Assembly: GCA_963674705.1 (NCBI GenBank)
Contig: OY771506.1
Span: forward strand, 1,600,001-1,664,000
DNA: 64,000 nt
Direction: 5' to 3'
DNA from: Phycisphaeraceae bacterium
GTDB lineage: Bacteria; Planctomycetota; Phycisphaerae; Phycisphaerales; Phycisphaeraceae
The notes under the pieces: generated by a model
What the model was told of the DNA's origin: nothing
What the model saw: only the letters and a program-made list of their open reading frames with translations
Database searches by the model: none
Translations under genes and position numbers: made by a program
In this document: in pieces, positions 51,864-64,000 of the stretch
How positions within the stretch are numbered: the stretch's first letter is position 1
Layout: every line of letters begins with the position of its first letter

Positions 51864-52928
51864 TTGGGTATCACACTTGGCATCATCGGCGCCGGCACGA
51901 TCGGTCGCGTACACGCGCTGGCGGCAAAGCAAATGGGCATGAAAATCGGGGGCGTCGCGGACATCCTGCCGGATAAAGCCGCCAAGCTCGCCGCCGACGT
52001 CGGGGGTGTGCCGAGTTACGATCACGCCGACAAACTGTTGGCTAACGACTCGATCGACGCCGTGGTCGTCGGCGTGCCCAATATCGACCACAAGCCGCTT
52101 GCGATCGCTTCGATGAAAGCGGGCAAGGACGTGCTGCTCGAAAAGCCGATGGCGATGAACACCGCGGAATGCAAGGAGATCAACGCCGTTGTGAAAGAAA
52201 CCGGCCGTATCCTGCAGATCGGCTACGTCCAGCGCTTCTCGACCGTCGGCCAGGGCGCCAAGCAACTGATCGACACCGGCGCGCTCGGCAAGGTCTATCA
52301 CGCCAAGGCACAACTCATCCGCCGACGCGGCATCCCCGGGCTCGGTGGATGGTTCACCACCAAGGCGCAGTCCGGCGGCGGGCCGTTGATCGACATCGGC
52401 GTGCATGTCATCGACCTCTCGCTCTACCTGCTCGGCGGCAAAAAGCCTTCGCGCGTCAGCGGCAAGACCTACTCGCACTTCGGCAGCCCCATCAAGGATT
52501 ACCTCTACGAAAGCATGTGGGCCGGCCCGCCGAACTACGACGGCGTGTTCGATGTCGAAGATGAAGCGCACGCCATGATCCACTTCGAGGACGGCACATC
52601 GCTGACCGTCGACGTCGCCTGGGCGATGAACGCGCCCGAAGACAAAATCCCCGTCAACCAGATGGCGTTCTACGGCGACAAGGGCGGCATGATCTTTGAA
52701 CTCTTCGGTGACCACGTCGTCCTCGCCAACGAACTGAACAACCGCAACGCCGACAGCAAACTCTACCTGCCGCAGGTCGAAATGCACCAGGAGCAGTTGG
52801 CCGACTTCGAAAAAGCCTGCCAAACCCGCAAAGCCCCCTGCGCGACTGGCGAGCAAGGCGAACTCGTCCAATCCATCATCGACGCCATCTACACCTCCAG
52901 CAAATCCAGCAAAGAAGTCACGTTGTAG
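51864..52928 (+). CDS. Gfo/Idh/MocA oxidoreductase
   Basis: GAGTIG, DVLLEKPMA, RRRGIPGLGGWFT.K..SGGGPLIDIGVH. Confidence 0.9.
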   Translation: MGITLGIIGAGTIGRVHALAAKQMGMKIGGVADILPDKAAKLAADVGGVPSYDHADKLLANDSIDAVVVGVPNIDHKPLAIASMKAGKDVLLEKPMAMNTAECKEINAVVKETGRILQIGYVQRFSTVGQGAKQLIDTGALGKVYHAKAQLIRRRGIPGLGGWFTTKAQSGGGPLIDIGVHVIDLSLYLLGGKKPSRVSGKTYSHFGSPIKDYLYESMWAGPPNYDGVFDVEDEAHAMIHFEDGTSLTVDVAWAMNAPEDKIPVNQMAFYGDKGGMIFELFGDHVVLANELNNRNADSKLYLPQVEMHQEQLADFEKACQTRKAPCATGEQGELVQSIIDAIYTSSKSSKEVTL

Positions 52929-52962
52929 ATTCGCTACAGTAAATCACCATGCATGACTCATT

Positions 52963-52990
52963 AGCCCCACGCACAACCGTGGGGTTTTTT
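52963..52990 (+). terminator. Intrinsic terminator
   Basis: GCCCCACG / CGTGGGGT stem plus T-tract. Confidence 0.75.
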
Positions 52991-53015
52991 GTGCACAAGA
53001 AGTTTGTTCTATTTA

Positions 53016-53182
53016 CCCCCCTCTCCCCTCGGGAGAGGGCCGGGGTGAGGGCCGTAACGGGATGAATGAGCTTTGTTTATTGGGTGTTTATGCTCTGACC
53101 TTGTTCGTTCAAATGAGGCTTCGCGCACAATCAATCCGGCCCTCACCCTAACCAATTCCGGGGCTCCCGCGGGGAGAGGGGA
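53016..53182. repeat. REP family A inverted doublet (second arm degenerate)
   Basis: CCCCCCTCTCCCCTCGGGAGAGGGCCGGGGTGAGGGCC (53016-53053) and GGCCCTCACCCTAACC...GGGGAGAGGGG (53138-53182). Confidence 0.75.
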
Positions 53183-53243
53183 TAAGAAAAACCCTGGGCT
53201 TCCGCCCAGGGCTAAGGGGTTTTGTCATCGAGTAGCACGCTAT

Positions 53244-55388
53244 TTATTTTTCTGAATCTTCCGATTCGTTTGATTCTTCGTCCGTGCTTTCGTTCTCGTA
53301 GCGAGTCTTCATGTTGAACAGATGCTTCTCGAGCGTGCCGGGTTTGACGGCGTTTTCGACGATCTCCGTGCTCTTGTAGATGCCTTCGCCCATCTTCTCA
53401 AGAGATTGCACATCCGTCACGATCTCGGGCGTCAGGAACAGAAGTAGTTCCGTCTTGCTCTTGGTCTCCTGCTTACGACGGAACAACGCGCCCAGGCCGG
53501 GGATGTCACCCAGCAATGGGACCTTGCTTTCGGTCAGCGTGTACTGGTCTTCCATCAATCCGCCGATCACGATGGTTTGTCCGCCTTGGATGGCGACGCG
53601 TGTCTCTGCGAAACGCTTGGCGATGACCTGCGCGTCGAGCTGCTCGGAGATCGCGACCGTTCGGCCGCTGATCGTTGACAATTCCTGCGACACGTCGAGC
53701 GTGACGCGGTTGTCCGGGTTGATCTGAGGCGTGACGTCGAGGATCAGGCCGATCTCGCGGTACTCGATCGTGTTGATCGTGTTGCCTGCGTCGGTCTCGC
53801 GCGTGTTGGTGACGAACGGGAACTCTTCACCGATCAGGATGTTCGATGGCTGATTATCCGAAGCCAGGATGTAAGGCCGAGACACGACCTCCAGCTTGCC
53901 GACCTCCTGCAACAGGCGGATGTTCAACAGGAAGTCATCGGTATCCAGCAGGACCGCCTGGAAACCGCCGCTCGCCGCGGCGACACTGAAGTCCGTCAGC
54001 AGGCTGTCGACCGATCCGCCGACGTTGTAGAGTTCACCTTCGACGCCGACATCCAGTTGGTCATCGATAGAAACTTCAGCGATCAGCACGCGGATCAACA
54101 CTTGCGGCTGTTGTGTGTCGAGTGATTCCAGGATCGCCATGATTCGATCGTGATTGCGCTCAGGGGTGAGGATCATCAGTGTGTTGGTTGCCTCATCGGC
54201 GACCGTGGTCACCTGCCCGACCAGGCTGCCGGCGAACGAATCGCTGCTGGAACTGCTGTTGTTGTTATTATTATTATTGTTGTTGCGGCTGCGCGGATCG
54301 CGCGGGCTGTTGTTGCTGCTGGAGGATGAATTTTCATCAAACAGGTCGTTGAACGCCGTCTCCAGGTCGGTCGCGAGAATGTGCTTGACGTGGTACACCA
54401 GCACGGACTCGCGCGCGGTGGTGTCGGCATCGAGCTGGTTGATCACTTCCTCGACAACCGTCATCAACTCGGGCGATGCGCTGACAACAACACTGTTGGT
54501 TCGTTCGTCGGAGGCGGCGCTGACTTCGCGGCCCTGCACTTGTGTGTTGCTGTCATCATTGCCGCCCATCCCGGGCGGGCCGAAACGGCTGAAACGCCTC
54601 TGAATCGCCCGGCCGACTGCGGAATCCGCGCTCTCCCTATCCTCAAATGTCTCTTCTAATAATTGCGCGGTGTCTTCGGCGTCCGCGTACTGCAGTTGGA
54701 AGACACGCACCTGCGTCACCGATGAGATCGACTTGTCCACCGCATTGACGATCTGAACGATACGCTTGATGTTCGCCTCCGCGTCCGTGATGATCAGCGA
54801 GTTGCTCGCTTCATTCGCCGCCACCTCGGCGACCTCGGTATTGATCAGCGGGGAAAGGTCGTCAGAAAGACTCTTGGCATCGGCGTAACGGATCGGAACG
54901 ATCTGCGTGATGATCGTATCCGTGTTGCCGATCTGGTCCGGATCGTTGCCGTAGCGAACGGGGATCGCATCGAGCTTGGCATCCTGCAAGCGGACAATAC
55001 GAAGCAACCGATCGCGACGCACGGCCGTGTAACCTTTCTCCATCAGCAGCGTGTTGATCAGGTTGATCGCTTCATCGAGCGTGATCGGCTGACGGTTGAC
55101 CACCGTGATGCGCCCATCGACCGCGGTGTCGTTGACGACGATGAGCCCGGCCTGTTCGGACAGGTACTCGAGCACGGTCTGCAGCGGCGCGTCGCTGAAG
55201 TTCATCAGCAGGCCGTTGCCGTTGATCAACGGCGTGTTGGGCGCCTGCTCTTGCTGCTCGCTGAGCGTCAGGTTCGGCGCCTGCTCGTCTGCGGCAGTGT
55301 TGCCTTCATCCTGTGCGAAACTCACAGGCGCGACGGACAACACCGTGCATACAAACAGGGTCGTGGATAGTGTAAATAGACGTCTCAT
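53244..55388 (-). CDS. gspD: Type II secretion secretin GspD
   Basis: ATG at 55388 with AGGAG; signal peptide; MNFSDAPL (N0), repeated D.R/ATN.L/VV N-domains, QVLIRVLIAEV, LDVTPQIN, KVPLLGDIPGLGALFR, ELLLFLTPEIV. Confidence 0.92.
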   Translation of the reverse strand: MRRLFTLSTTLFVCTVLSVAPVSFAQDEGNTAADEQAPNLTLSEQQEQAPNTPLINGNGLLMNFSDAPLQTVLEYLSEQAGLIVVNDTAVDGRITVVNRQPITLDEAINLINTLLMEKGYTAVRRDRLLRIVRLQDAKLDAIPVRYGNDPDQIGNTDTIITQIVPIRYADAKSLSDDLSPLINTEVAEVAANEASNSLIITDAEANIKRIVQIVNAVDKSISSVTQVRVFQLQYADAEDTAQLLEETFEDRESADSAVGRAIQRRFSRFGPPGMGGNDDSNTQVQGREVSAASDERTNSVVVSASPELMTVVEEVINQLDADTTARESVLVYHVKHILATDLETAFNDLFDENSSSSSNNSPRDPRSRNNNNNNNNNSSSSSDSFAGSLVGQVTTVADEATNTLMILTPERNHDRIMAILESLDTQQPQVLIRVLIAEVSIDDQLDVGVEGELYNVGGSVDSLLTDFSVAAASGGFQAVLLDTDDFLLNIRLLQEVGKLEVVSRPYILASDNQPSNILIGEEFPFVTNTRETDAGNTINTIEYREIGLILDVTPQINPDNRVTLDVSQELSTISGRTVAISEQLDAQVIAKRFAETRVAIQGGQTIVIGGLMEDQYTLTESKVPLLGDIPGLGALFRRKQETKSKTELLLFLTPEIVTDVQSLEKMGEGIYKSTEIVENAVKPGTLEKHLFNMKTRYENESTDEESNESEDSEK

Positions 55389-55398
55389 AGTTGTACTC

Positions 55399-56067
55399 CT
55401 ACTGGCTCTCACGCTCCCGCCGTTCGCGGAGCCGGCGAAGAATGTCGGCTGTGCTTGAACCCGTATCGCTTGACTCGTTGCTTGAAGTTGTACTGTTATC
55501 AGAGCCCCGCTCTGATGTAGAGGAACCATATCCGTCCGACGAACCGTAGTAACCCGACATGCCTGATCCGTATGATCGGCTGGCAAGCGCGCCGGTCAGG
55601 TCGTACCCGATCTGGATATTGCGCTGCTCATCACCGACCTGATACTCGACAACGTCGTGGCTGATCGCACCCAGCTTTCCGCTGGCAAAGGTTTCGTCCT
55701 CGCCTACGCGGAAGACCTCGCGCGTCTGCATGTTCTCGAAGAACGCCAACCAGCGTTCGCCTGTGTAACTGACGCCGATGAACCGGTACGCACGGTCCGG
55801 ATCCTCCGGCTCGGGCTGCGGCTCATATTGCTGCTCAGGTTGTTCCTGGCCTGCTTCACCCGGAGCCGGTTCAACACGCGGGGCGCGACGCTGGCTCGGT
55901 ACGAACAGGTTGCCGTTGATCACCTTCTCCATCGTTTCCTTGGAGACTTCCTTGGCCGTCCATGCCGAAGCATCGATCTTTTCTTCCTGCGCCGACGCCG
56001 AAGCACTCAGCATCAACAGCGAAGACAGGCAGCACATCGCGATAATCATGTTTGACTTTGTTTTCAT
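55399..56067 (-). CDS. Hypothetical T2SS accessory protein (GspC-like position)
   Basis: N-terminal hydrophobic segment, NLF, FIGVSY...AFF.......RVGE pattern; lies between gspM and gspD. Confidence 0.55.
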   Translation of the reverse strand: MKTKSNMIIAMCCLSSLLMLSASASAQEEKIDASAWTAKEVSKETMEKVINGNLFVPSQRRAPRVEPAPGEAGQEQPEQQYEPQPEPEDPDRAYRFIGVSYTGERWLAFFENMQTREVFRVGEDETFASGKLGAISHDVVEYQVGDEQRNIQIGYDLTGALASRSYGSGMSGYYGSSDGYGSSTSERGSDNSTTSSNESSDTGSSTADILRRLRERRERESQ

Positions 56068-56597
56068 GATGCGCCCTCCTCTTCGCTCAACACCAGCGTC
56101 GACACCGTCAGCCGAAGCGTCAGGCGGTTGCTGCTGTCGTCACGCCTGGCGATGTCGCATGACAACACCGCCAACGGGATCTGCGCTTGCTGGACCTTCT
56201 GGAGGAACTTTGCGACCGAACTTAATTCGCCCGTTGCGGTCAGGCTGAAACGCACTTCCGTAAACGGCGGGCTGCTCAGGTTGCCGCCGGCGCTGAGGTT
56301 GTTCAGCGTTAATCCGGAACTTTCCGCCACCCGGCTGACCTGGCCCTGCACGTTCAATCGCGCCGATGCCGGGCTGCTCCACAACCCCGCGAGCTTACGC
56401 TCTTCCCAGCGAGAGAGGATCAGTTCACGGTTATCCACCAGCACCATGTCTTCATCAATCTGCTGCTCAAGCGTGTCCGCTTGTTCGCGCAGATCGCTCA
56501 GGTACACCTGCATCGGCGAGATCAGCAAACGGTCGGCTACGAAGAAACCAACGATCAGCGCGACCGCCCAGGCCAGTAATCGCTCGCGTTTAGACAT
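56064..56597 (-). CDS. GspM/PilO-like inner-membrane platform protein
   Basis: MSKRERLL + TM + coiled coil + ATGELSSVAKFL ferredoxin-like domain. Confidence 0.7.
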   Translation of the reverse strand: MSKRERLLAWAVALIVGFFVADRLLISPMQVYLSDLREQADTLEQQIDEDMVLVDNRELILSRWEERKLAGLWSSPASARLNVQGQVSRVAESSGLTLNNLSAGGNLSSPPFTEVRFSLTATGELSSVAKFLQKVQQAQIPLAVLSCDIARRDDSSNRLTLRLTVSTLVLSEEEGAS

Positions 56598-57922
56598 CAG
56601 CGGCCCCCCTTTCCAGCGATATAGTTGAACACGATTTCAAATCGTACTTCGCCCCGGTCGTTCTGTGTCTGTGCCGAGTCACGAAGCGCAACGCTGCTTA
56701 AACTCTCCGACGCCTGCATCGTCCTCAAAAACTCGAGCATCTGGCTGCGCGTCTCGGCCCGGCCCTGTAGCGAACCGCTCTTATCCGCGTTCAACCGGAA
56801 CTCTGTCAGCCGTAATTCACTTCGCTGCGGCACGCATTCGGTCAGCACCTGCATGCACGAAAGCATGTCCACGCGCTTATCAAACCACGGCGCGGATTCA
56901 TCCAGCCGCGACTTCACCTCGCTGAGCATCTCAACATCCGACGCCATCCCCGCCGCCGTTGCCTGCAGCGTTGATAACCGATGCTCTCGGCTCCACCACA
57001 ACCCACCGACCGCAAGAATCAACAGAACCACCAGCGCCGCAACACCCACGCCGATCCGCTGCGTCTTGGTCAGGCCCCTGCCCGTTTCCTTCGAGGCTCG
57101 ACAACGCAGCAGGTCCAGCATGTCGTGCTGTTGTGCACGCCGCCGCATCGCATCGATCACAGATTCATCGATCACGGATGTCGAACCACCCGCTACACCG
57201 TTCAGGTACGAGGCGATGCTGTGCGGATCGATCCCCGTTGCCGGATCGGATGCCAGCACGAGTTCGCTTTGATTGCTTGATAGCTGCGGGTCGGACGCGA
57301 TGTTGGCCGTGATCGCACGCGCCGCACCGGCCGGGTCGTTATCGAGCGTATCGCACAGCGAACGCAATCCGACCGTCCTGCCGTCCCGCACCAATGCCAA
57401 CTCAGCCATCGGCGGATCGATACGCACAAGCGTCGTGTCCGCCTGCTTCTCGTTGACATATGCCTGCGCCGTCACGTGGATCGCAACCGGCGTCAGCCCT
57501 GCTTCTGCAAGCGTCTTGGTCAGGCTCTCCAGTTTCTTGCGCGTCGTCACGCCGATCAACACTTCGCTCGCCCCGCTGCTTCGGCTGATCGTATAGTCGG
57601 CAACCAGGTTGCCCGCGTCCGTCGCATAGTCCCGGCTGACGCGCATCTTTACCGCGCCTGCCGCCACGTTCGTATCGGTCGACGGCACGCTCAATCGCTG
57701 CGTCAACACCCACGATACCGGCACGCCCACCACCACGCGCCCCAGCGACAAACGGTGCGAACCCAACTGGTTTTTCAGTAACGCGCCCAACGTCGCCGCA
57801 TCCATGTCGGACCAGCGACCGGGCAGATCGATCTTGACTGGCTGCGCATCACCCGGCGCCGCGGCGACCACACGGTGCTCGTCGATCAACATCACAAGAT
57901 GCTTCTTCGCATCACGTGCCAC
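56597..57922 (-). CDS. GspL/PilM-PilN-like platform protein
   Basis: Cytoplasmic actin-like region (VVVGVP), MLDLL + TM, PilN-like periplasmic domain (LQGRA). Confidence 0.7.
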   Translation of the reverse strand: MARDAKKHLVMLIDEHRVVAAAPGDAQPVKIDLPGRWSDMDAATLGALLKNQLGSHRLSLGRVVVGVPVSWVLTQRLSVPSTDTNVAAGAVKMRVSRDYATDAGNLVADYTISRSSGASEVLIGVTTRKKLESLTKTLAEAGLTPVAIHVTAQAYVNEKQADTTLVRIDPPMAELALVRDGRTVGLRSLCDTLDNDPAGAARAITANIASDPQLSSNQSELVLASDPATGIDPHSIASYLNGVAGGSTSVIDESVIDAMRRRAQQHDMLDLLRCRASKETGRGLTKTQRIGVGVAALVVLLILAVGGLWWSREHRLSTLQATAAGMASDVEMLSEVKSRLDESAPWFDKRVDMLSCMQVLTECVPQRSELRLTEFRLNADKSGSLQGRAETRSQMLEFLRTMQASESLSSVALRDSAQTQNDRGEVRFEIVFNYIAGKGGR

Positions 57923-59415
57923 TAATGCACCCCCGATCCGTATTGTTCAGATACTTCGTCCACCGTTGCTCCTTGACGTAAGGCAACTCTAATCTCCGGA
58001 TCGATCGGCCAACCCAGGTCCGTGATGTCCTGCAGGTACACCACACGCGGGCCCTCCACTTCTTCGCCGTTGCTCGACAACGTGTCGATCACCACGCGGT
58101 AACGCACGAACCCTCGGCCGTCCCCACTCACCGCCAGGATGTCCGCGCCAAACTGAAAACTGCGCGTCGTCAGCAGATTCGCCGCCGCGACCGCTTTCTC
58201 TTTATCTAACGCGTCGACCAGCCATAACATCGATTCCTGATCGGTGTCGCGCGCCGAAACGATCTTCTGCCCGTCGCCCTCTTCAAGCCCCGGCAACAAA
58301 TCCAGCACCTCCGCCGGCGCCGTGTTCACATTGATCAAGCCACGCTGCACGTTCTGGTTGTTCGCGGTGACTTTGTCCTGTAGCTTCGCGAACTCTTCAT
58401 CCGTCAGCTTCAGCTTGATCGCAAAGTCGAGCGCGTTCTGGAACGGCCGGCCCGTCAGGACCTGCGGCGACACCTCGTTGAACCGCTTTTCTTCAAGCTC
58501 ATCTCGCAACAACTGGAACAACTCGCCGCCCTGATTCAGGTTTGTCCGGTCCTCGCCGTCAACGGTCTTGTTCGGCTCGACGCTGTACACCGTCAGGTAC
58601 GGATACAAACCCACGTCCAGCGAGCCGTCCGCGTTATCACTCGGCGGGGTTGCCGCAGCGTCGTTCTCGTTGTCATCAAGTACGCCGTTGCGGTTTGTGT
58701 CTTCGCCGTAAAGAATCAGTTCATCCACATCACGCACCAGCAGCAACTCTTCGAGTGTCTCGAATCGGCTGTTCTTCGCTTCGTAACCGATGCGTTGCGC
58801 CAGGTAATAGTCGGACTCCGCGCCGCCGTCTCGTATCTCGTCGTCGCCATCCGCCCAGTCGGCGATCGCGTTACAGATTTCGCTGTTCAAGCCGATCAAC
58901 CCGGATAGCGCCTCGGGGGGCGTGACACTCACGTTCAGCCGCGTGTTCTCCGGCACCACGCCGTAGGTCGGCTCTTCATCCGTCGTAAAGTCCTGCGCGA
59001 TCACCCAGAACAATCCGTTGCCCAGGGGTTCTGCTTGTACTTCAAGAAAATCTATCGCCGGGTTCTCACCCGCATCGATCGAGTTCTGCAAATCCGCCTT
59101 GATCGCCTCGATCACCCCCATTGCGATCATCCGCGCCTGCACCTGTGAGACATTGTTCCCCGCAGTGACCGCTTCGGTCTGCATCTGTCGAGCAAACACC
59201 AACGCCATCGCCACCAGGAACACGATCATCGCCAACACCACCACCAGCGCCGCACCACGTTGACGCTTTATAGTGGTCAGGCGCTCTACCCCCCTCTCCC
59301 CTCGGGAGAGGGCCGGGGTGAGGGCCGAATTCCTTTTGCACGCTATCAACCAATTTATTCGGGTGCCACACATTGACTGCGCAGCAGCAATGTGTGTTGA
59401 GTCGTTCCATCGCAC
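57922..59415 (-). CDS. gspK: Minor pseudopilin GspK; the leader carries REP insertions and the start is uncertain
   Basis: RQRG|AALVVVLAM prepilin site, ENTRLNV, AIADWAD.D, FETLEELLLVRDV, INVNTAPAEVL. Confidence 0.9.
   Translation of the reverse strand: MRWNDSTHIAAAQSMCGTRINWLIACKRNSALTPALSRGERGVERLTTIKRQRGAALVVVLAMIVFLVAMALVFARQMQTEAVTAGNNVSQVQARMIAMGVIEAIKADLQNSIDAGENPAIDFLEVQAEPLGNGLFWVIAQDFTTDEEPTYGVVPENTRLNVSVTPPEALSGLIGLNSEICNAIADWADGDDEIRDGGAESDYYLAQRIGYEAKNSRFETLEELLLVRDVDELILYGEDTNRNGVLDDNENDAAATPPSDNADGSLDVGLYPYLTVYSVEPNKTVDGEDRTNLNQGGELFQLLRDELEEKRFNEVSPQVLTGRPFQNALDFAIKLKLTDEEFAKLQDKVTANNQNVQRGLINVNTAPAEVLDLLPGLEEGDGQKIVSARDTDQESMLWLVDALDKEKAVAAANLLTTRSFQFGADILAVSGDGRGFVRYRVVIDTLSSNGEEVEGPRVVYLQDITDLGWPIDPEIRVALRQGATVDEVSEQYGSGVH
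59289..59326. repeat. REP family A copy inside the gspK leader
   Basis: CCCCCCTCTCCCCTCGGGAGAGGGCCGGGGTGAGGGCC, identical to 53016-53053. Confidence 0.85.
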
Positions 59416-59446
59416 ACTTTGCCCTTCGGGTCAAAGTGTGGCACCC
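59361..59446. repeat. Second palindrome family (E) inverted doublet at the gspJ-gspK junction
   Basis: GGGTGCCACACATTG..CAATGTGTG and CACACTTTG-CCC-TTCG-GGT-CAAAGTGTGGCACCC; partial copy at 60706-60730. Confidence 0.7.
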
Positions 59447-59472
59447 CATGCTGGTAAGTAAAAGTGTCACGC

Positions 59473-60138
59473 TCATCTTCCCACCCCCGACAGGATACTG
59501 TCCGAGCGCGTCCCGGCCGGCATCGCGATGATCTGTGTGAACATCAGGTCATCAGAGTTTGAATACTTCGAATCCTCATCCGGATGATACAACGTGATAC
59601 GCACCGCCAGCGGCAGCGTGTTGTCCTGCTGGGTTGAGTCCCAGTCATCGACCCAGTCCGACCCGTCGCTGTATTCAACATTCCAGCCGGTCAGTCCGCG
59701 TGCAAGTATCTGCTCCTCCGGGTCCGTTGTCGCCGGTGCGAGCAGATTCGTCGTGATATAACGCACAAGCATGAACGTATCGCTATCGTCCGTATCTTCT
59801 GCCAGTTCAAGACTGACGTTGATCAAATCAGACAGCTTGCCGTCCGGCGGGAGGAAGCTGTTGGCGGTGGTAAAGCTGATCACGTCCTGCTGGCTGTCGT
59901 CTTCACCAAGGAATCCACCGGCCATTTCACCGGTCGGCGGCGGAACGGATTGCAGATCACGCCGCACCAGTTCCAGCGCCAGGCTCAACGTGCGGTCCTT
60001 GCCGATCGTGCTCGAAGCCTTGTCGCGCGTCGTCGTCGCAATCATCAGGCTCGCGTAGACCGTCGCCGCCAGGATCGCGGTGATCGCGATCGCCAGGATC
60101 AGCTCAATCAACGTAAATGCACGGTTTCGAGGCCTCAT
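59473..60138 (-). CDS. gspJ: Minor pseudopilin GspJ
   Basis: RA|FTLIELILAIAI, LVRRDLQS, W.DDWDS....LPLAVRITL. Confidence 0.88.
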   Translation of the reverse strand: MRPRNRAFTLIELILAIAITAILAATVYASLMIATTTRDKASSTIGKDRTLSLALELVRRDLQSVPPPTGEMAGGFLGEDDSQQDVISFTTANSFLPPDGKLSDLINVSLELAEDTDDSDTFMLVRYITTNLLAPATTDPEEQILARGLTGWNVEYSDGSDWVDDWDSTQQDNTLPLAVRITLYHPDEDSKYSNSDDLMFTQIIAMPAGTRSDSILSGVGR

Positions 60139-60767
60139 GTATCACTTTCGTCATGCACGGCTGTGGTCAGCGTGATCGTCTGGGGTCGGCCGCGCCGCTC
60201 CCAACTCACCGTCATCGTGAGTTTCCGCACGCTCGGGTCGAGCCATTCCTCGACCTGCAGCACCCAGGTATAACGCCCCGACTGTCCTGTTTCTTCGTCC
60301 TCAACTTCAAATTCTCCGGTGTCGTCCCCGAACTGCCAGCTCTCATCCAGCAGGATCTCGTTGATCTTGTTTTCCGCCAGCCGCGCCGCCTCCGCCCGGT
60401 CCTGTGCCAACCCGCCGATATGCGTCGCCGTATTGAGCGCCCCCATCAACACCGGCAACACGATCGCCACCAATAACAACGCCGCCAAAACTTCGAGTAA
60501 TGAGAATCCTCGTTGAGTATGCCTTCGCCTTACCCCCTCTCCCCCTGGGAGAGGGCCGGGGTGAGGGCCAACAACCTTGGAGTTACTTACTGCAATTACT
60601 TCTTCTGATACAGCAGATTCTTTTTCTGCACGATGGGTAAAGTCTGTACACCCAATCAACCCGGCCCTCACCCTAGCCCTCTCCCGAGGGGAGAGGGGAC
60701 CGGAGTTGACTGCGCAGCAGCAAAGTGTGCTTTCAAACTCACTCTTCATCTCAGAGGCGCAGCGCAT
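60135..60767 (-). CDS. gspI: Minor pseudopilin GspI with an 87-residue leader containing a REP doublet
   Basis: QRG|FSLLEVLAALL; LAENKINE; AGGAGG six nt before ATG at 60767. Confidence 0.85.
   Translation of the reverse strand: MRCASEMKSEFESTLCCCAVNSGPLSPRERARVRAGLIGCTDFTHRAEKESAVSEEVIAVSNSKVVGPHPGPLPGGEGVRRRHTQRGFSLLEVLAALLLVAIVLPVLMGALNTATHIGGLAQDRAEAARLAENKINEILLDESWQFGDDTGEFEVEDEETGQSGRYTWVLQVEEWLDPSVRKLTMTVSWERRGRPQTITLTTAVHDESDT
60533..60698. repeat. REP family A inverted doublet inside the gspI coding sequence
   Basis: Arms at 60533-60569 and 60663-60698 around an AT-richer spacer. Confidence 0.85.
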
Positions 60768-61296
60768 TGAGCACCTCCTGGGCCTTCAGCCCCTTCACTT
60801 CGCTCTTACCCATGATCCGGTAGCGCTCGGTCGCCGCTTCGCAGGTAATCACAACGAACCGATCATCCTGCTCGACGATCACCGTGCCCGGCGTCACCAG
60901 GCCCGTCGGCTCGAAGTAGAGCATGATCTCGTTGTAGCCGCTCTTTTCGACATCCGTATCGATCTCGATCGTGTTGTTCCACTGAACCGACTCGACACCC
61001 GTGCCGACGGTTTGTTCGTAGCCTTCATCACCGATGTGCTCGATGTACGCTTCGCGCTGCTCAAGGTTGATTACTACGCGGTACGTATTCGCTTCGTGGA
61101 TCGCGCGCGTCTGCGCCTGCTGCGTCAAGGTGAACAGTTCTACCGCAGTGTTATCCAGCGCCGCCCTCCGCGCAAAACCGCTGAGTGCGGGTGTCGCCAG
61201 TGTGGTGAGAGTGGCGATAAGCACCAGCACGAGGATCAGCTCAAGCAGAGTGAAGCCGAGAGCCGATCTGCGGGTTGTACGCGTGCGTGGGTTCAC
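60751..61296 (-). CDS. gspH: Minor pseudopilin GspH
   Basis: LG|FTLLELILVLVLI, AQTRAI, FEPTG. Confidence 0.85.
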   Translation of the reverse strand: MNPRTRTTRRSALGFTLLELILVLVLIATLTTLATPALSGFARRAALDNTAVELFTLTQQAQTRAIHEANTYRVVINLEQREAYIEHIGDEGYEQTVGTGVESVQWNNTIEIDTDVEKSGYNEIMLYFEPTGLVTPGTVIVEQDDRFVVITCEAATERYRIMGKSEVKGLKAQEVLNALRL

Positions 61297-61733
61297 TTGG
61301 TTGTTGTCCAGTTGGCGATGTCGTCGTTACCCCCGGCCCGTTGATCGGGGCCGTAGGAATACAGATCGAATCCCTCTTCGTTGTGCGTGCCCGGGCATCG
61401 GTACTGCCATTCGTTACCCCACTGGTCCACCGGCACAACGTCCGATTCCAGGTATGGACCGGACCAGCCCTCGGCATCGGAAGGCTCTTCGATCAGCGCT
61501 TCCAAGCCCTGCTGCGTCGTCGGGTACGAACCGACCTGCAGTTCATACGTGCCCAGCGCGGTCTTGAAGTCGCTTAGTTGTGTCTTTGCGGCGGTGATCC
61601 GCGCTTTCTCGGATTGGCCGGCAAAGCGCACGCCGACGATCGCCGACAACACGGCAAGGATGACCAGCACCAGCAGCAGTTCGAGAATGCTGAAACCACG
61701 GCTGCGTGTTTGACGTTTGTTCTTATTCATCAT
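61293..61733 (-). CDS. gspG: Major pseudopilin GspG
   Basis: RG|FSILELLLVLVIL, YPTTQQGLEAL, WSGPYL, DQWGNEWQY, DLYSYGPD....DDIANW. Confidence 0.93.
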   Translation of the reverse strand: MMNKNKRQTRSRGFSILELLLVLVILAVLSAIVGVRFAGQSEKARITAAKTQLSDFKTALGTYELQVGSYPTTQQGLEALIEEPSDAEGWSGPYLESDVVPVDQWGNEWQYRCPGTHNEEGFDLYSYGPDQRAGGNDDIANWTTTK

Positions 61734-61743
61734 GATTAAACCT

Positions 61744-62958
61744 CTACTGAATCGCGTCCCAAAGATCGAACACCGGTAACAGCATACCGATCACGATCGT
61801 CCCCACGAGCGTCGCCATGACAAACAGCAACGCCGGCTCTGCCAACGACACCAGCATCCGCAGGCGACGGTCCAACTCTTGTTCATTATCTACACCCAAC
61901 CGATCGAGCTCCGCGCTTAGCTGCCCGGACTCTTCCGCCACCGCGATCACTTCCAAAACCGACGGCGGGAACAACCCCGGGCACGTCGCCAAGCCACGCG
62001 CCAAACTGTCGCCGCGCTGCACGCGGTCGATCGATTCATCCAAAGCGTCGGAAAGGATCTGGTTGCCGATCGCTTCACGCGCCACGCGCAATGACATGAT
62101 CAACGGCACACCCGCGCCGAGCAGCGTCCCCAGCATCCGGCAAAAACGCACGAGTGCGAACCTCGCCGTCACCGTGCCGACGCCCGGCACCTTGAGTATC
62201 CATTTATCCCTGAATCGTCGTCCGCCCGGCGTCGCCAGCGCACGCTTGCCGACGATTGCCAGCAAAGCCGCGATGACAAGGATGAAAGGCCCGTACTCAC
62301 GCACCGCAAGACTCACGCCCTGGATGATCCGTGTGATCAAAGGCAAATCCTGGCCGAACTGCTCAAAGATCCCCGAAAACTTCGGGATAAACCACGACAG
62401 CAAGAACGTCACCACGCCCGTCGCGACACACATCAGCACGATCGGGTAGATCATCGCGCCGGTCACCCGGCTTTTAAGGTCACGCTCGCGCGACATGAAC
62501 TCGGCGATCTGACGGAGTACGACATCCAGGAAGCCGCCCGTCTCGCCGGCACGCACCATCGCGACATGCACCGGCGCGAACACGCGGTCGTGCTTGCTCA
62601 TCGCTTCTGCGAGCGGTGTGCCGTCCGACACCTCGTCGCGCACGTTTTGCCAAAGCGACTTCGCCGCCTGTGATTTTGATTCTCTTCCCAGAATTTCAAG
62701 CGCCCTGCTTAACGGCACACCCGCCGCAAGCAAGCCGGAAAGCTGACGCAGAAACTGATGCACCTGGGCCGGACGCACACGACCGGTCGTCGCACGCTGC
62801 AAGCCTGATTGACTCGCCTCGTCCTGTTCATCGACGCTGACGGGCATCAGGCCGCGCTGCTCGATCGCCTCGGCCGCAGCCGTCGCGTTCGCCGCGTCGA
62901 TCACGCCGCTGCGCTTCTTGCCTGTGGATTCAAGTCCGGTATAAGCGAACACGGGCAT
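61744..62958 (-). CDS. gspF: T2SS inner-membrane protein GspF
   Basis: RQLSGLLAAGVPL, MVRAGETGG.L, AMIYP, AEESGQL, EP...LLPVF. Confidence 0.93.
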   Translation of the reverse strand: MPVFAYTGLESTGKKRSGVIDAANATAAAEAIEQRGLMPVSVDEQDEASQSGLQRATTGRVRPAQVHQFLRQLSGLLAAGVPLSRALEILGRESKSQAAKSLWQNVRDEVSDGTPLAEAMSKHDRVFAPVHVAMVRAGETGGFLDVVLRQIAEFMSRERDLKSRVTGAMIYPIVLMCVATGVVTFLLSWFIPKFSGIFEQFGQDLPLITRIIQGVSLAVREYGPFILVIAALLAIVGKRALATPGGRRFRDKWILKVPGVGTVTARFALVRFCRMLGTLLGAGVPLIMSLRVAREAIGNQILSDALDESIDRVQRGDSLARGLATCPGLFPPSVLEVIAVAEESGQLSAELDRLGVDNEQELDRRLRMLVSLAEPALLFVMATLVGTIVIGMLLPVFDLWDAIQ

Positions 62959-62963
62959 CGTCG

Positions 62964-64000
62964 TCAGCCTTTACCTTTCGTGTCGCCGCCGTAGACATGT
63001 TGCTCATCCTTGGTAACACGCAAGACTTCCTGAACCGTCGTCAGGCCTTCACGCACCAGACGCCAGCCGTCTTCGCGCAGGCTCTGCATCCCTTCGATGG
63101 TCGCCACGCGTCGGACCTCGCGCCCCGAGGCCGTGCCGGTGGCTAGCGCGCGTAATTGTTCGCTCATCGGCATCATCTCGAACACGCCCCGCCGGCCCTG
63201 GTACCCCGTGCCGTTGCACTCCCGGCAACCCGTGCCGACGTACAACTCGCTGGGCAGGTTACCGTTGTACTTCTCGATCAACGCCTGCGCATCACTCTCC
63301 GCCATACGCTGCTTACAACGCGGGCAGATCAACCGCACCAAGCGCTGCGCCACCACCATCTCAAGCGAAGACGCAACCAGGTAAGGCTCGACGCCCATGT
63401 CGATCAATCGCGGGATCGCGCCCGGCGCATCGTTCGTATGCAGCGTGGAGAAAACAAGATGGCCAGTCAACGATGCCTGCACCGCGATCTCCGCCGTCTC
63501 GCGGTCGCGGATTTCACCGATCAAGACAACGTCCGGGTCGTGACGCAAAATCGACCGCAAGCCACGCGCGAACGTCAACCCGGTTTTCGTATCGACCTGG
63601 ATCTGGTTCACGCCGTCCAGGTGATACTCGATCGGGTCTTCGATCGTGACGATCTTGCGGTCGCTGGTATTGATCTGCGAAAGCCCCGCATACAGCGTCG
63701 TCGTTTTACCGCTACCGGTCGGGCCCGTGACTAACACGATGCCGTGCGGAAGCGCGAGGATTTCTTCGAATTTGCCCAGATGCATCTTGGACATGCCAAG
63801 CCCATTGAGCCCGACCAATGAGCCGTGTCGATCGAGGATACGCAGCACGACCGCTTCGCCGTGCAGCATCGGGATGATCGATACACGCACATCGACTTCA
63901 CGTCCTGAGACACGCAGCTTGATGCGCCCGTCCTGCGGCAGGCGCTTCTCTGCGATATCCAAATGGCTTAGGATCTTAAGACGCGAAACGATCGCCGGCT
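62964..64000 (-). CDS. gspE: T2SS ATPase GspE (5' end outside the window)
   Basis: DIAEKRLPQDGR, GPTGSGKTTTLY, TIEDPIEY, LRHDPDVVLIGEIRD, TLHTND, CxxC...CxxC. Confidence 0.95.
   Translation of the reverse strand, partial: PAIVSRLKILSHLDIAEKRLPQDGRIKLRVSGREVDVRVSIIPMLHGEAVVLRILDRHGSLVGLNGLGMSKMHLGKFEEILALPHGIVLVTGPTGSGKTTTLYAGLSQINTSDRKIVTIEDPIEYHLDGVNQIQVDTKTGLTFARGLRSILRHDPDVVLIGEIRDRETAEIAVQASLTGHLVFSTLHTNDAPGAIPRLIDMGVEPYLVASSLEMVVAQRLVRLICPRCKQRMAESDAQALIEKYNGNLPSELYVGTGCRECNGTGYQGRRGVFEMMPMSEQLRALATGTASGREVRRVATIEGMQSLREDGWRLVREGLTTVQEVLRVTKDEQHVYGGDTKGKG

Follow-up and report, generated by a model that had tools for sequence, protein, structure and literature searches.

Repeat elements that lie behind the gspH stop codon in a type II secretion-like (T2SS-like) operon are probably translated from the ancestral gspI start and removed together with the leader peptide by the prepilin peptidase; the mature pseudopilin would be unchanged, and the repeats would be passengers, not parts of the secretion machine. 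The operon lies in the window, by which we mean the whole stretch of 64,000 nucleotides that was analysed, and the genome containing the window (5.54 Mb, single contig) is referred to as G000. An earlier sequence-only reading of this DNA had proposed that, in a tightly coupled operon, repeats survive in prepilin leaders because these are cut off. Tests of enrichment and of reading frame bear this out and support the safe-haven idea in the sense of a filter on which inserts survive: among coupled junctions, a repeat after an in-frame start was found at 35 of 300 gspI, gspJ and gspK junctions and at 0 of 162 gspL and gspM junctions (Fisher p = 1.5e-7, a value overstated by kinship, since related genomes are not independent and the p-values are too strong), and of the 63 prepilin junctions that bear a repeat and span at least 90 nt, 52 had an open gene frame.

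The gspI leader and its repeats

The features of the operon and of the gspI and gspK leaders are collected in Table 1. About 100 genomes of the class share this gene order. The C-like gene between gspM and gspD (window 55399-56067), which gave no Pfam match, is conserved and present in 97 of 109 operons.

Table 1. Features of the operon and of the gspI and gspK leaders (window positions)
Feature	Position	Strand	Basis or remark
T2SS-like operon E-F-G-H-I-J-K-L-M-(C-like)-D	53244..64000	(-)	Pfam; C-like label by position only
gspI ORF	60767-60135	(-)	210 aa; Pfam N_methyl residues 83-104, T2SSI 123-204
Shine-Dalgarno AGGAGG for gspI	60774..60779	(-)	within coding end of gspH
Ancestral gspI leader start (ATG, MRCAS)	60753..60767	(-)	overlaps last gspH codons
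gspH stop TGA	60753-60751	(-)	inside gspI leader
Predicted 87-residue class III leader of gspI	60507..60767	(-)	8 ancestral-equivalent and 79 inserted codons
Truncated family E REP arm in gspI leader	60706..60731 (about)	(-)	intact arms flank Y1_Tnp gene
BoxC/PIT/TM_ECO arm, type A-like (CTA second loop)	60665..60697	(-)	fits published consensus
97-nt spacer between gspI arms	60568..60664	(-)	43% GC; unique in G000
BoxC/PIT/TM_ECO arm, type B (CCG second loop)	60535..60567	(+)	inverted relative to first arm
Basic gspI leader end VRRRHTQRG	60507..60534	(-)	without ATG/GTG/TTG; near-cognate GTA at 60533
Mature GspI-like minor pseudopilin, 123 aa	60135..60506	(-)	F1, E5; PF07963, PF02501
gspK leader from ATG overlapping gspJ stop	59257..59476	(-)	insert with family E doublet and BoxC arm
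Family E doublet in gspK leader	about 59449-59363	(-)	within gspK insert
Type B BoxC arm in gspK leader	59324-59292	(-)	consensus match
Homopolymer run with one probable extra base, gspK leader	59286-59291		contig comparison

The start proposed by the sequence-only reading, an ATG at 60767 behind a strong AGGAGG, agrees with our measurements: the site pairs at -14.0 kcal/mol with the 3' end of G000's own 16S RNA, which places it in the top 1% of 960 genes scored, and a purine-rich equivalent occupies the matching place in four congeners. Exactly 87 open codons lead from this ATG to the cleavage site RG/FSLLE (the slash marks the cut), as had been claimed; contigs did not span the gspI doublet, and the frame rests on agreement with the congener G004. 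Canonical in-frame starts occur only at -87 (ATG), -81 (ATG), -55 (GTG) and -51 (TTG), and the in-frame scan found none between the last arm and the cleavage site, in line with the earlier observation. The insert falls entirely upstream of the predicted cleavage site, and the protein has the class III features: a basic leader end, Gly-1, Phe1, Glu5, a hydrophobic tract and the T2SSI domain. Pfam matched nothing in the leader except N_methyl at its end, and an Rfam search of 52000-64000 gave four weak matches, all below the gathering score and none of them in the leader. The other leaders in the window, previously read as 7-14 residues, measure 12-13 (GspG), 14 (GspH) and 7 residues (GspJ). G000 also encodes an intact-looking prepilin peptidase ORF of 409 aa.

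The family E fragment, the two arms and the AT-rich spacer that had been placed inside the leader all map there, with the spacer well below the genome-wide GC content of 56.6%; it is homologous to the spacers of the gspI and gspK doublets of G004. Both arms fit the BoxC/PIT/TM_ECO consensus, CCCTCNCCC N3-6 GGGNGAGGG N3 GGGNGAGGG (PMC4666352). Five matches to the arm consensus were observed in the window against 0.00 expected, and G000 as a whole has 86 exact matches and 149 looser arms in 117 loci. Nearly all inverted doublets in G000 (29 of 30) pair a type A arm with a type B arm, and the gspI doublet combines the CTA variant of type A with the CCG type B. Only 16% of the reading frames through these 30 doublets are open, so that an open frame is not the default. 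Of the 117 BoxC loci, 42 fall between convergent genes, against 615 of 4240 gene pairs, and the loci thus prefer 3' positions; most are outside coding cores (1 of 117 inside). By blastn, the arm is present in 5410 of 5426 E. coli genomes. DUF559, which we took to be a lead for the BoxC mobiliser, was rejected, as no DUF559 gene was found in G000; none of the 14 Y1_Tnp genes in G000 is flanked on both sides by BoxC arms, and one has a single arm nearby.

Repeat families were defined by motif lists; k-mer clustering over the whole genome had run families together. A Y1_Tnp (RAYT-like) gene at G000:C1:13195-13560 has inverted family E arms on either side, at -108 and +118 (gene and arms together, G000:C1:13063-13714), and elsewhere in G000 the family forms inverted doublets. 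Families P and B are similarly paired with other Y1_Tnp genes at 291753, 4511231 and 387949. Heptamer arrays number about 110 in the genome, and no fewer than twelve short repeat families are abundant in it; families D and J, which turned out to be coding repeats, were excluded.

The earlier reading had also noted a similar insertion in gspK. This insert is present, but as assembled in the window the coupled ATG lies 220 nt from the cleavage site, which puts it out of frame by one base. At 59289, the contigs of runs X1, X3 and X4, which represent two samples, have one base fewer (this gap lies 26 bases short of the contig end, and the X2 contig ends before the informative point), and gspK of G004 has an in-frame leader of 84 codons. 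The frameshift is probably a homopolymer error of the assembly and, given the contigs that lack this base, gspK is probably the second in-frame case.

Filled and empty alleles in relatives

We found a gspI match in five of ten congeneric genomes. Four of them (L003-L006) have an 8-residue leader of the MRCASSRG/F type, with an ATG that follows a purine-rich tract and overlaps the last part of gspH; these empty alleles fix the gspI start and the insertion point. Leaders of the form MRCAS, MRCVS or MRRAA followed by SRG/F occur in the same four congeners and in P0001-P0006, P0011 and P0013-P0015. The G000 gene keeps MRCAS and the final RG, and the 79 codons between them begin at the gspH stop. 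In another congener, L023 (G007), gspF, gspI and gspJ look split or shortened by stops, either through decay or through assembly errors.

The fifth congener, G004, has an open gspI leader of 188 codons with two doublets, and it differs from G000 by 303 nt, or 101 codons, located between two copies of the family E sequence. Mature GspI is 99% identical between the two genomes (4 synonymous and 1 non-synonymous codon differences). The three homologous spacers of G004 are 97, 97 and 115 nt long, their lengths thus differing by 0 and 18 nt. Its two gspI units are 14 non-synonymous and 6 synonymous codons apart and contain neither a stop nor a frameshift, a pattern which, judged from the codons, suggests that the frame is kept and the peptide is free to drift about neutrally. 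Other repeat families follow the same MRCA start in P0007 (56-residue leader) and P0012 (104 residues), both drawn from a protein set, which selects for open frames, and a BoxC doublet occupies the same gspI site in G054, from another family. The proteins P0016, P0017, P0019 and P0020 start within the mature region.

Repeats at gene junctions in Phycisphaerae operons

When 401 genomes of the class were searched with a profile, 132 gave gspI-like matches. The 109 operons analysed comprise 100 of the best-scoring matches, eight further loci and G000, with G302 and some weak or contig-end matches left out. Repeats were detected as motifs, hairpins, inverted repeats or heptamer arrays by a procedure that fired in 4 of 600 coding control windows.

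Following the upstream stop, a repeat was found at 70 of 529 prepilin junctions and at 26 of 485 other junctions, and a canonical start behind the last repeat was absent from 42 of the former and 3 of the latter. The remaining 28 of the 70 prepilin junctions have such a start after the repeat; they are mostly the looser gspG and gspH junctions and probably represent ordinary intergenic repeats. At the E-F junction, all 11 repeats sit before gspF's own ATG. For the 63 long repeat-bearing prepilin junctions, which occur at least once in 44 of the 109 genomes, the shifted frames were open in 17 and 11 cases, compared with the 52 given above, and 11 were not open in the gene frame. Overlaps of the ATGA or GTGA type were in frame and open in 26 of 34 cases and out of frame in the other 8. 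Apart from G000 and G004, a single pair of inserts was alike by global alignment, so most inserts are separate events. Leaders of at least 50 residues were found at 29 of 300 coupled gspI, gspJ and gspK junctions; of 41 long leaders only one contains a stretch of strong hydrophobicity, and in 37 the last eight positions still include a basic residue.

Coupled-junction hits were also obtained at M-C (3/96) and C-D (7/50), whose genes are not among the uncleaved controls. Most of them are single matches to a short motif, located in linkers or signal regions, and they include a clear BoxC doublet in L089 with its own downstream ATG. The detector missed a heptamer repeat at the K-L junction of L099, which probably lies before gspL's own TTG. 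Tandem heptamer arrays also extend prepilin leaders in frame in L059, L060, L043, L087, L147, L152 and L100, with leader peptides such as SSFCILHSSFCI.

In-frame repeats elsewhere in the genome

The earlier reading had suggested a survey of all prepilin-motif genes for such enrichment, and both this genome-wide count and the within-operon comparison came out in its favour. Genes were called with our own program and sorted by a crude classifier of hydrophobicity. A repeat in frame at the N-terminus, with no start behind it, was counted in 4 of 97 prepilin genes, in 4 of 1148 genes that have an N-terminal hydrophobic stretch or a lipobox, and in 4 of 2451 others; when gspI and gspK are left out, the proportions are 2/95 for prepilin genes and 4/2451 for the others (p = 0.019). 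One of the four other genes resembles a lipoprotein. The classification rule overlooked a methylpurine glycosylase whose N-terminus carries a BoxC arm.

Three more prepilin genes have repeats in an open leader: G000:C1:4273549 (-), a DUF1559 protein with a BoxC arm in its 37-residue leader, 4341048 (+), and 201085 (-), which has its own ATG seven codons ahead of the cleavage site. At G000:C1:5437537 (+), a family K repeat may provide the ATG of the downstream gene (...SRLYM, then ISLTTDFG).

In-frame repeats were also seen just ahead of lipoprotein or Sec-type hydrophobic stretches with no later start (G000:C1:4126687 (+), 1318182 (-), 356271 (+), 5315736 (+) and 1042350 (+)), and signal-peptide starts may be a second refuge. 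A search for internal in-frame repeats produced 43 candidate rows, many of them apparently chance fuzzy matches; eight of the 43 and one dehydratase-component case were checked against Pfam. Internal RPE-like repeats were observed in DnaE, a Mur ligase, a lipoyl ligase, UbiD, a P-type ATPase and a dehydratase D-component (loci G000:C1:1722065, 1285599, 4361766, 4881966, 3679114 and 1805243). Prepilin leaders are thus the most enriched coding refuge seen in G000. They are not the sole one, and the earlier view of leaders as the one tolerant segment does not hold, because repeats also occur at signal-peptide starts, at a few cytoplasmic N-termini and in internal loops.

Proposed mechanism and alternative explanations

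These patterns probably arise in three steps. BoxC and REP-type repeats would be supplied preferentially toward the 3' ends of genes, as the BoxC loci of G000 are. Where the next gene starts on or before the upstream stop, an arrangement observed here, that position is coding DNA. Finally, inserts that shift the frame, carry stops or fall in retained N-termini would be purged, in keeping with the junction pattern, and in-frame inserts in a hydrophilic, cytoplasmic, cleaved leader with a basic end and Gly would be near neutral and accumulate. For gspI we infer translation from the ATG at 60767, membrane insertion, cleavage and near neutrality; a start at the GTG (-55, position 60671) or TTG (-51, position 60659), if used, would still translate the second arm. 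Class III leaders are described as remaining cytoplasmic, and the peptidase needs no other factor to cut them behind the Gly (PMC4471445, PMC10191384). Reviewed leaders are 6-26 residues long (PMC4471445), so processing of 87-188 residues is an extrapolation.

Translation might instead begin at a non-canonical codon behind the last arm (GTA 60533 in gspI, CTG 59280 in gspK), with the G-rich arm end acting as ribosome-binding site and the repeat being effectively intergenic. The purine end of the arm does resemble a Shine-Dalgarno sequence, with pairing of -10.1 and -13.1 kcal/mol ahead of the two codons, and minor pseudopilins may be needed in small amounts. Di Nocera et al. also warn that REPs at N-termini may be mis-annotated (PMC3733652). 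We nevertheless consider this start quite unlikely: both sites lie in or beside a hairpin and have mean unpaired values of 0.31 and 0.21, against 0.40 and 0.50 at the ATGs, non-canonical codons in E. coli reached 0.01-3% of AUG in one study (10.1101/063800), and the frame that stays open from the ancestral start across unrelated inserts would be left unexplained. Another reading, in which the operon is little used or decaying and inserts are tolerated through weak selection and not through cleavage, would fit the fast turnover of inserts between G000 and G004 and the apparent gspK frameshift in the window, a frameshift which is absent from the contigs of two samples. It is very improbable in view of the gene order conserved in about 100 genomes and of the 89 synonymous and 13 non-synonymous codon differences in genes F-M between G000 and G004, which indicate purifying selection (the count leaves out gspD, with 328 non-synonymous differences, and the C-like gene, with 21/21, whose ungapped comparison was probably disturbed by indels). 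Weak selection would, moreover, neither spare gspL and gspM nor preserve the frame.

The inserts may also have been domesticated or targeted, with hairpins setting the level of tip pseudopilins through slowed ribosomes or RNase cleavage, or with elements homing to prepilin leaders. Repeats are indeed concentrated at gspI and gspK and occupy several junctions in a row in some genomes, and the gspI leader region has a very stable predicted RNA fold (-139 kcal/mol, z = -5.8). Set against this are the detection of a repeat at only 11 of 103 gspI junctions, the differing families, the nearly neutral divergence of the duplicated G004 units and the position of most BoxC loci of G000 outside coding cores; Holder et al. 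2015 likewise saw nothing to suggest that BoxC has a regulatory function in E. coli (PMC4666352). Domestication or targeting is quite unlikely, and the earlier suggestion that the hairpins tune pseudopilin stoichiometry finds no support, the inserts being sporadic, drawn from unrelated families and different between near-identical genomes. A wider and doubtful reading sees prepilin leaders as a lasting niche that selfish repeats occupy across whole bacterial classes: the peptidase would remove up to about 190 residues and let unrelated families accumulate in essential genes, and recombination between repeat copies, as the 303-nt difference might illustrate, would exchange hairpin cassettes in frame, which would serve as strain-variable dials on tip-pseudopilin supply.

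Translation and removal with the leader, the reading we prefer, points to a defined site at which coding DNA acts as spacer DNA does, with a control inside the same operon. It predicts that the prepilin peptidase handles leaders several times longer than those reviewed, at an enzyme-substrate step that is poorly understood. Repeats at N-termini that have been set aside as mistakes of annotation can be real, a point of importance for calling start codons and predicting pilins in Planctomycetota, and the E. coli BoxC triplex motif is placed in a remote phylum, where one site has both filled and empty alleles.

Comparison with known systems

No published description of repeats in prepilin leaders was found in the literature searched, whose scope left subscription journals mostly outside. 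Class III signal peptides are described as having a hydrophilic leader ending in Gly, a 21-residue hydrophobic tract and Glu5, all common to GspI (PMC4471445, PMC10191384). The leader length differs, 6-26 residues in the reviewed cases (PMC4471445) against 87 in G000 and 188 in G004. Family E is like RAYT-associated REPs in flanking a RAYT-like gene on both sides and forming doublets elsewhere, and it ends in GTGGCACCC. Di Nocera et al. 2013 describe intragenic REPs, in-frame N-terminal cases included, as here, and treat the N-terminal ones as likely mis-annotation (PMC3733652); the word 'pilin' does not occur in that text or in its four searched supplements (PMC3733652).

Holder et al. describe BoxC of E. 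coli as an intrastrand triplex repeat (PMC4666352), to which the present arms are assigned by consensus match; BoxC is also counted among the known E. coli repeat families in another study (PMC2267715). As in G000, inverted pairs there mix TTA-type and CCG-type arms (all five E. coli pairs), but the first gspI arm has a CTA loop in place of TTA, and the copies of E. coli K-12 are always intergenic, in contrast to the gspI copy in an open coding frame (PMC4666352).

Rickettsia palindromic elements and MITE-ORF fusions, as reviewed in Delihas 2008, are short palindromes translated in frame within host genes, as here (PMC2229807). Their peptides are retained in the mature protein or form new ORF ends, whereas the gspI insert would be discarded, and the gspI site, unlike those fusions, is used by several unrelated repeat families. 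In-frame palindromes within genes are thus already known from this review and the REP study (PMC2229807, PMC3733652); added here are the identification of the arms as BoxC, the filled and empty alleles and the within-operon control.

The earlier term 'peptide-level intron' is loose, as nothing is rejoined and the whole leader would simply be discarded. Inteins and introns are selfish sequences rendered harmless by removal after transcription or translation, and the likeness of the gspI insert to them lies in this harmlessness through removal. Unlike them, the palindrome-derived insert involves no self-splicing, rejoining or element-encoded catalyst, and the host's ordinary leader cleavage would remove it with the leader.
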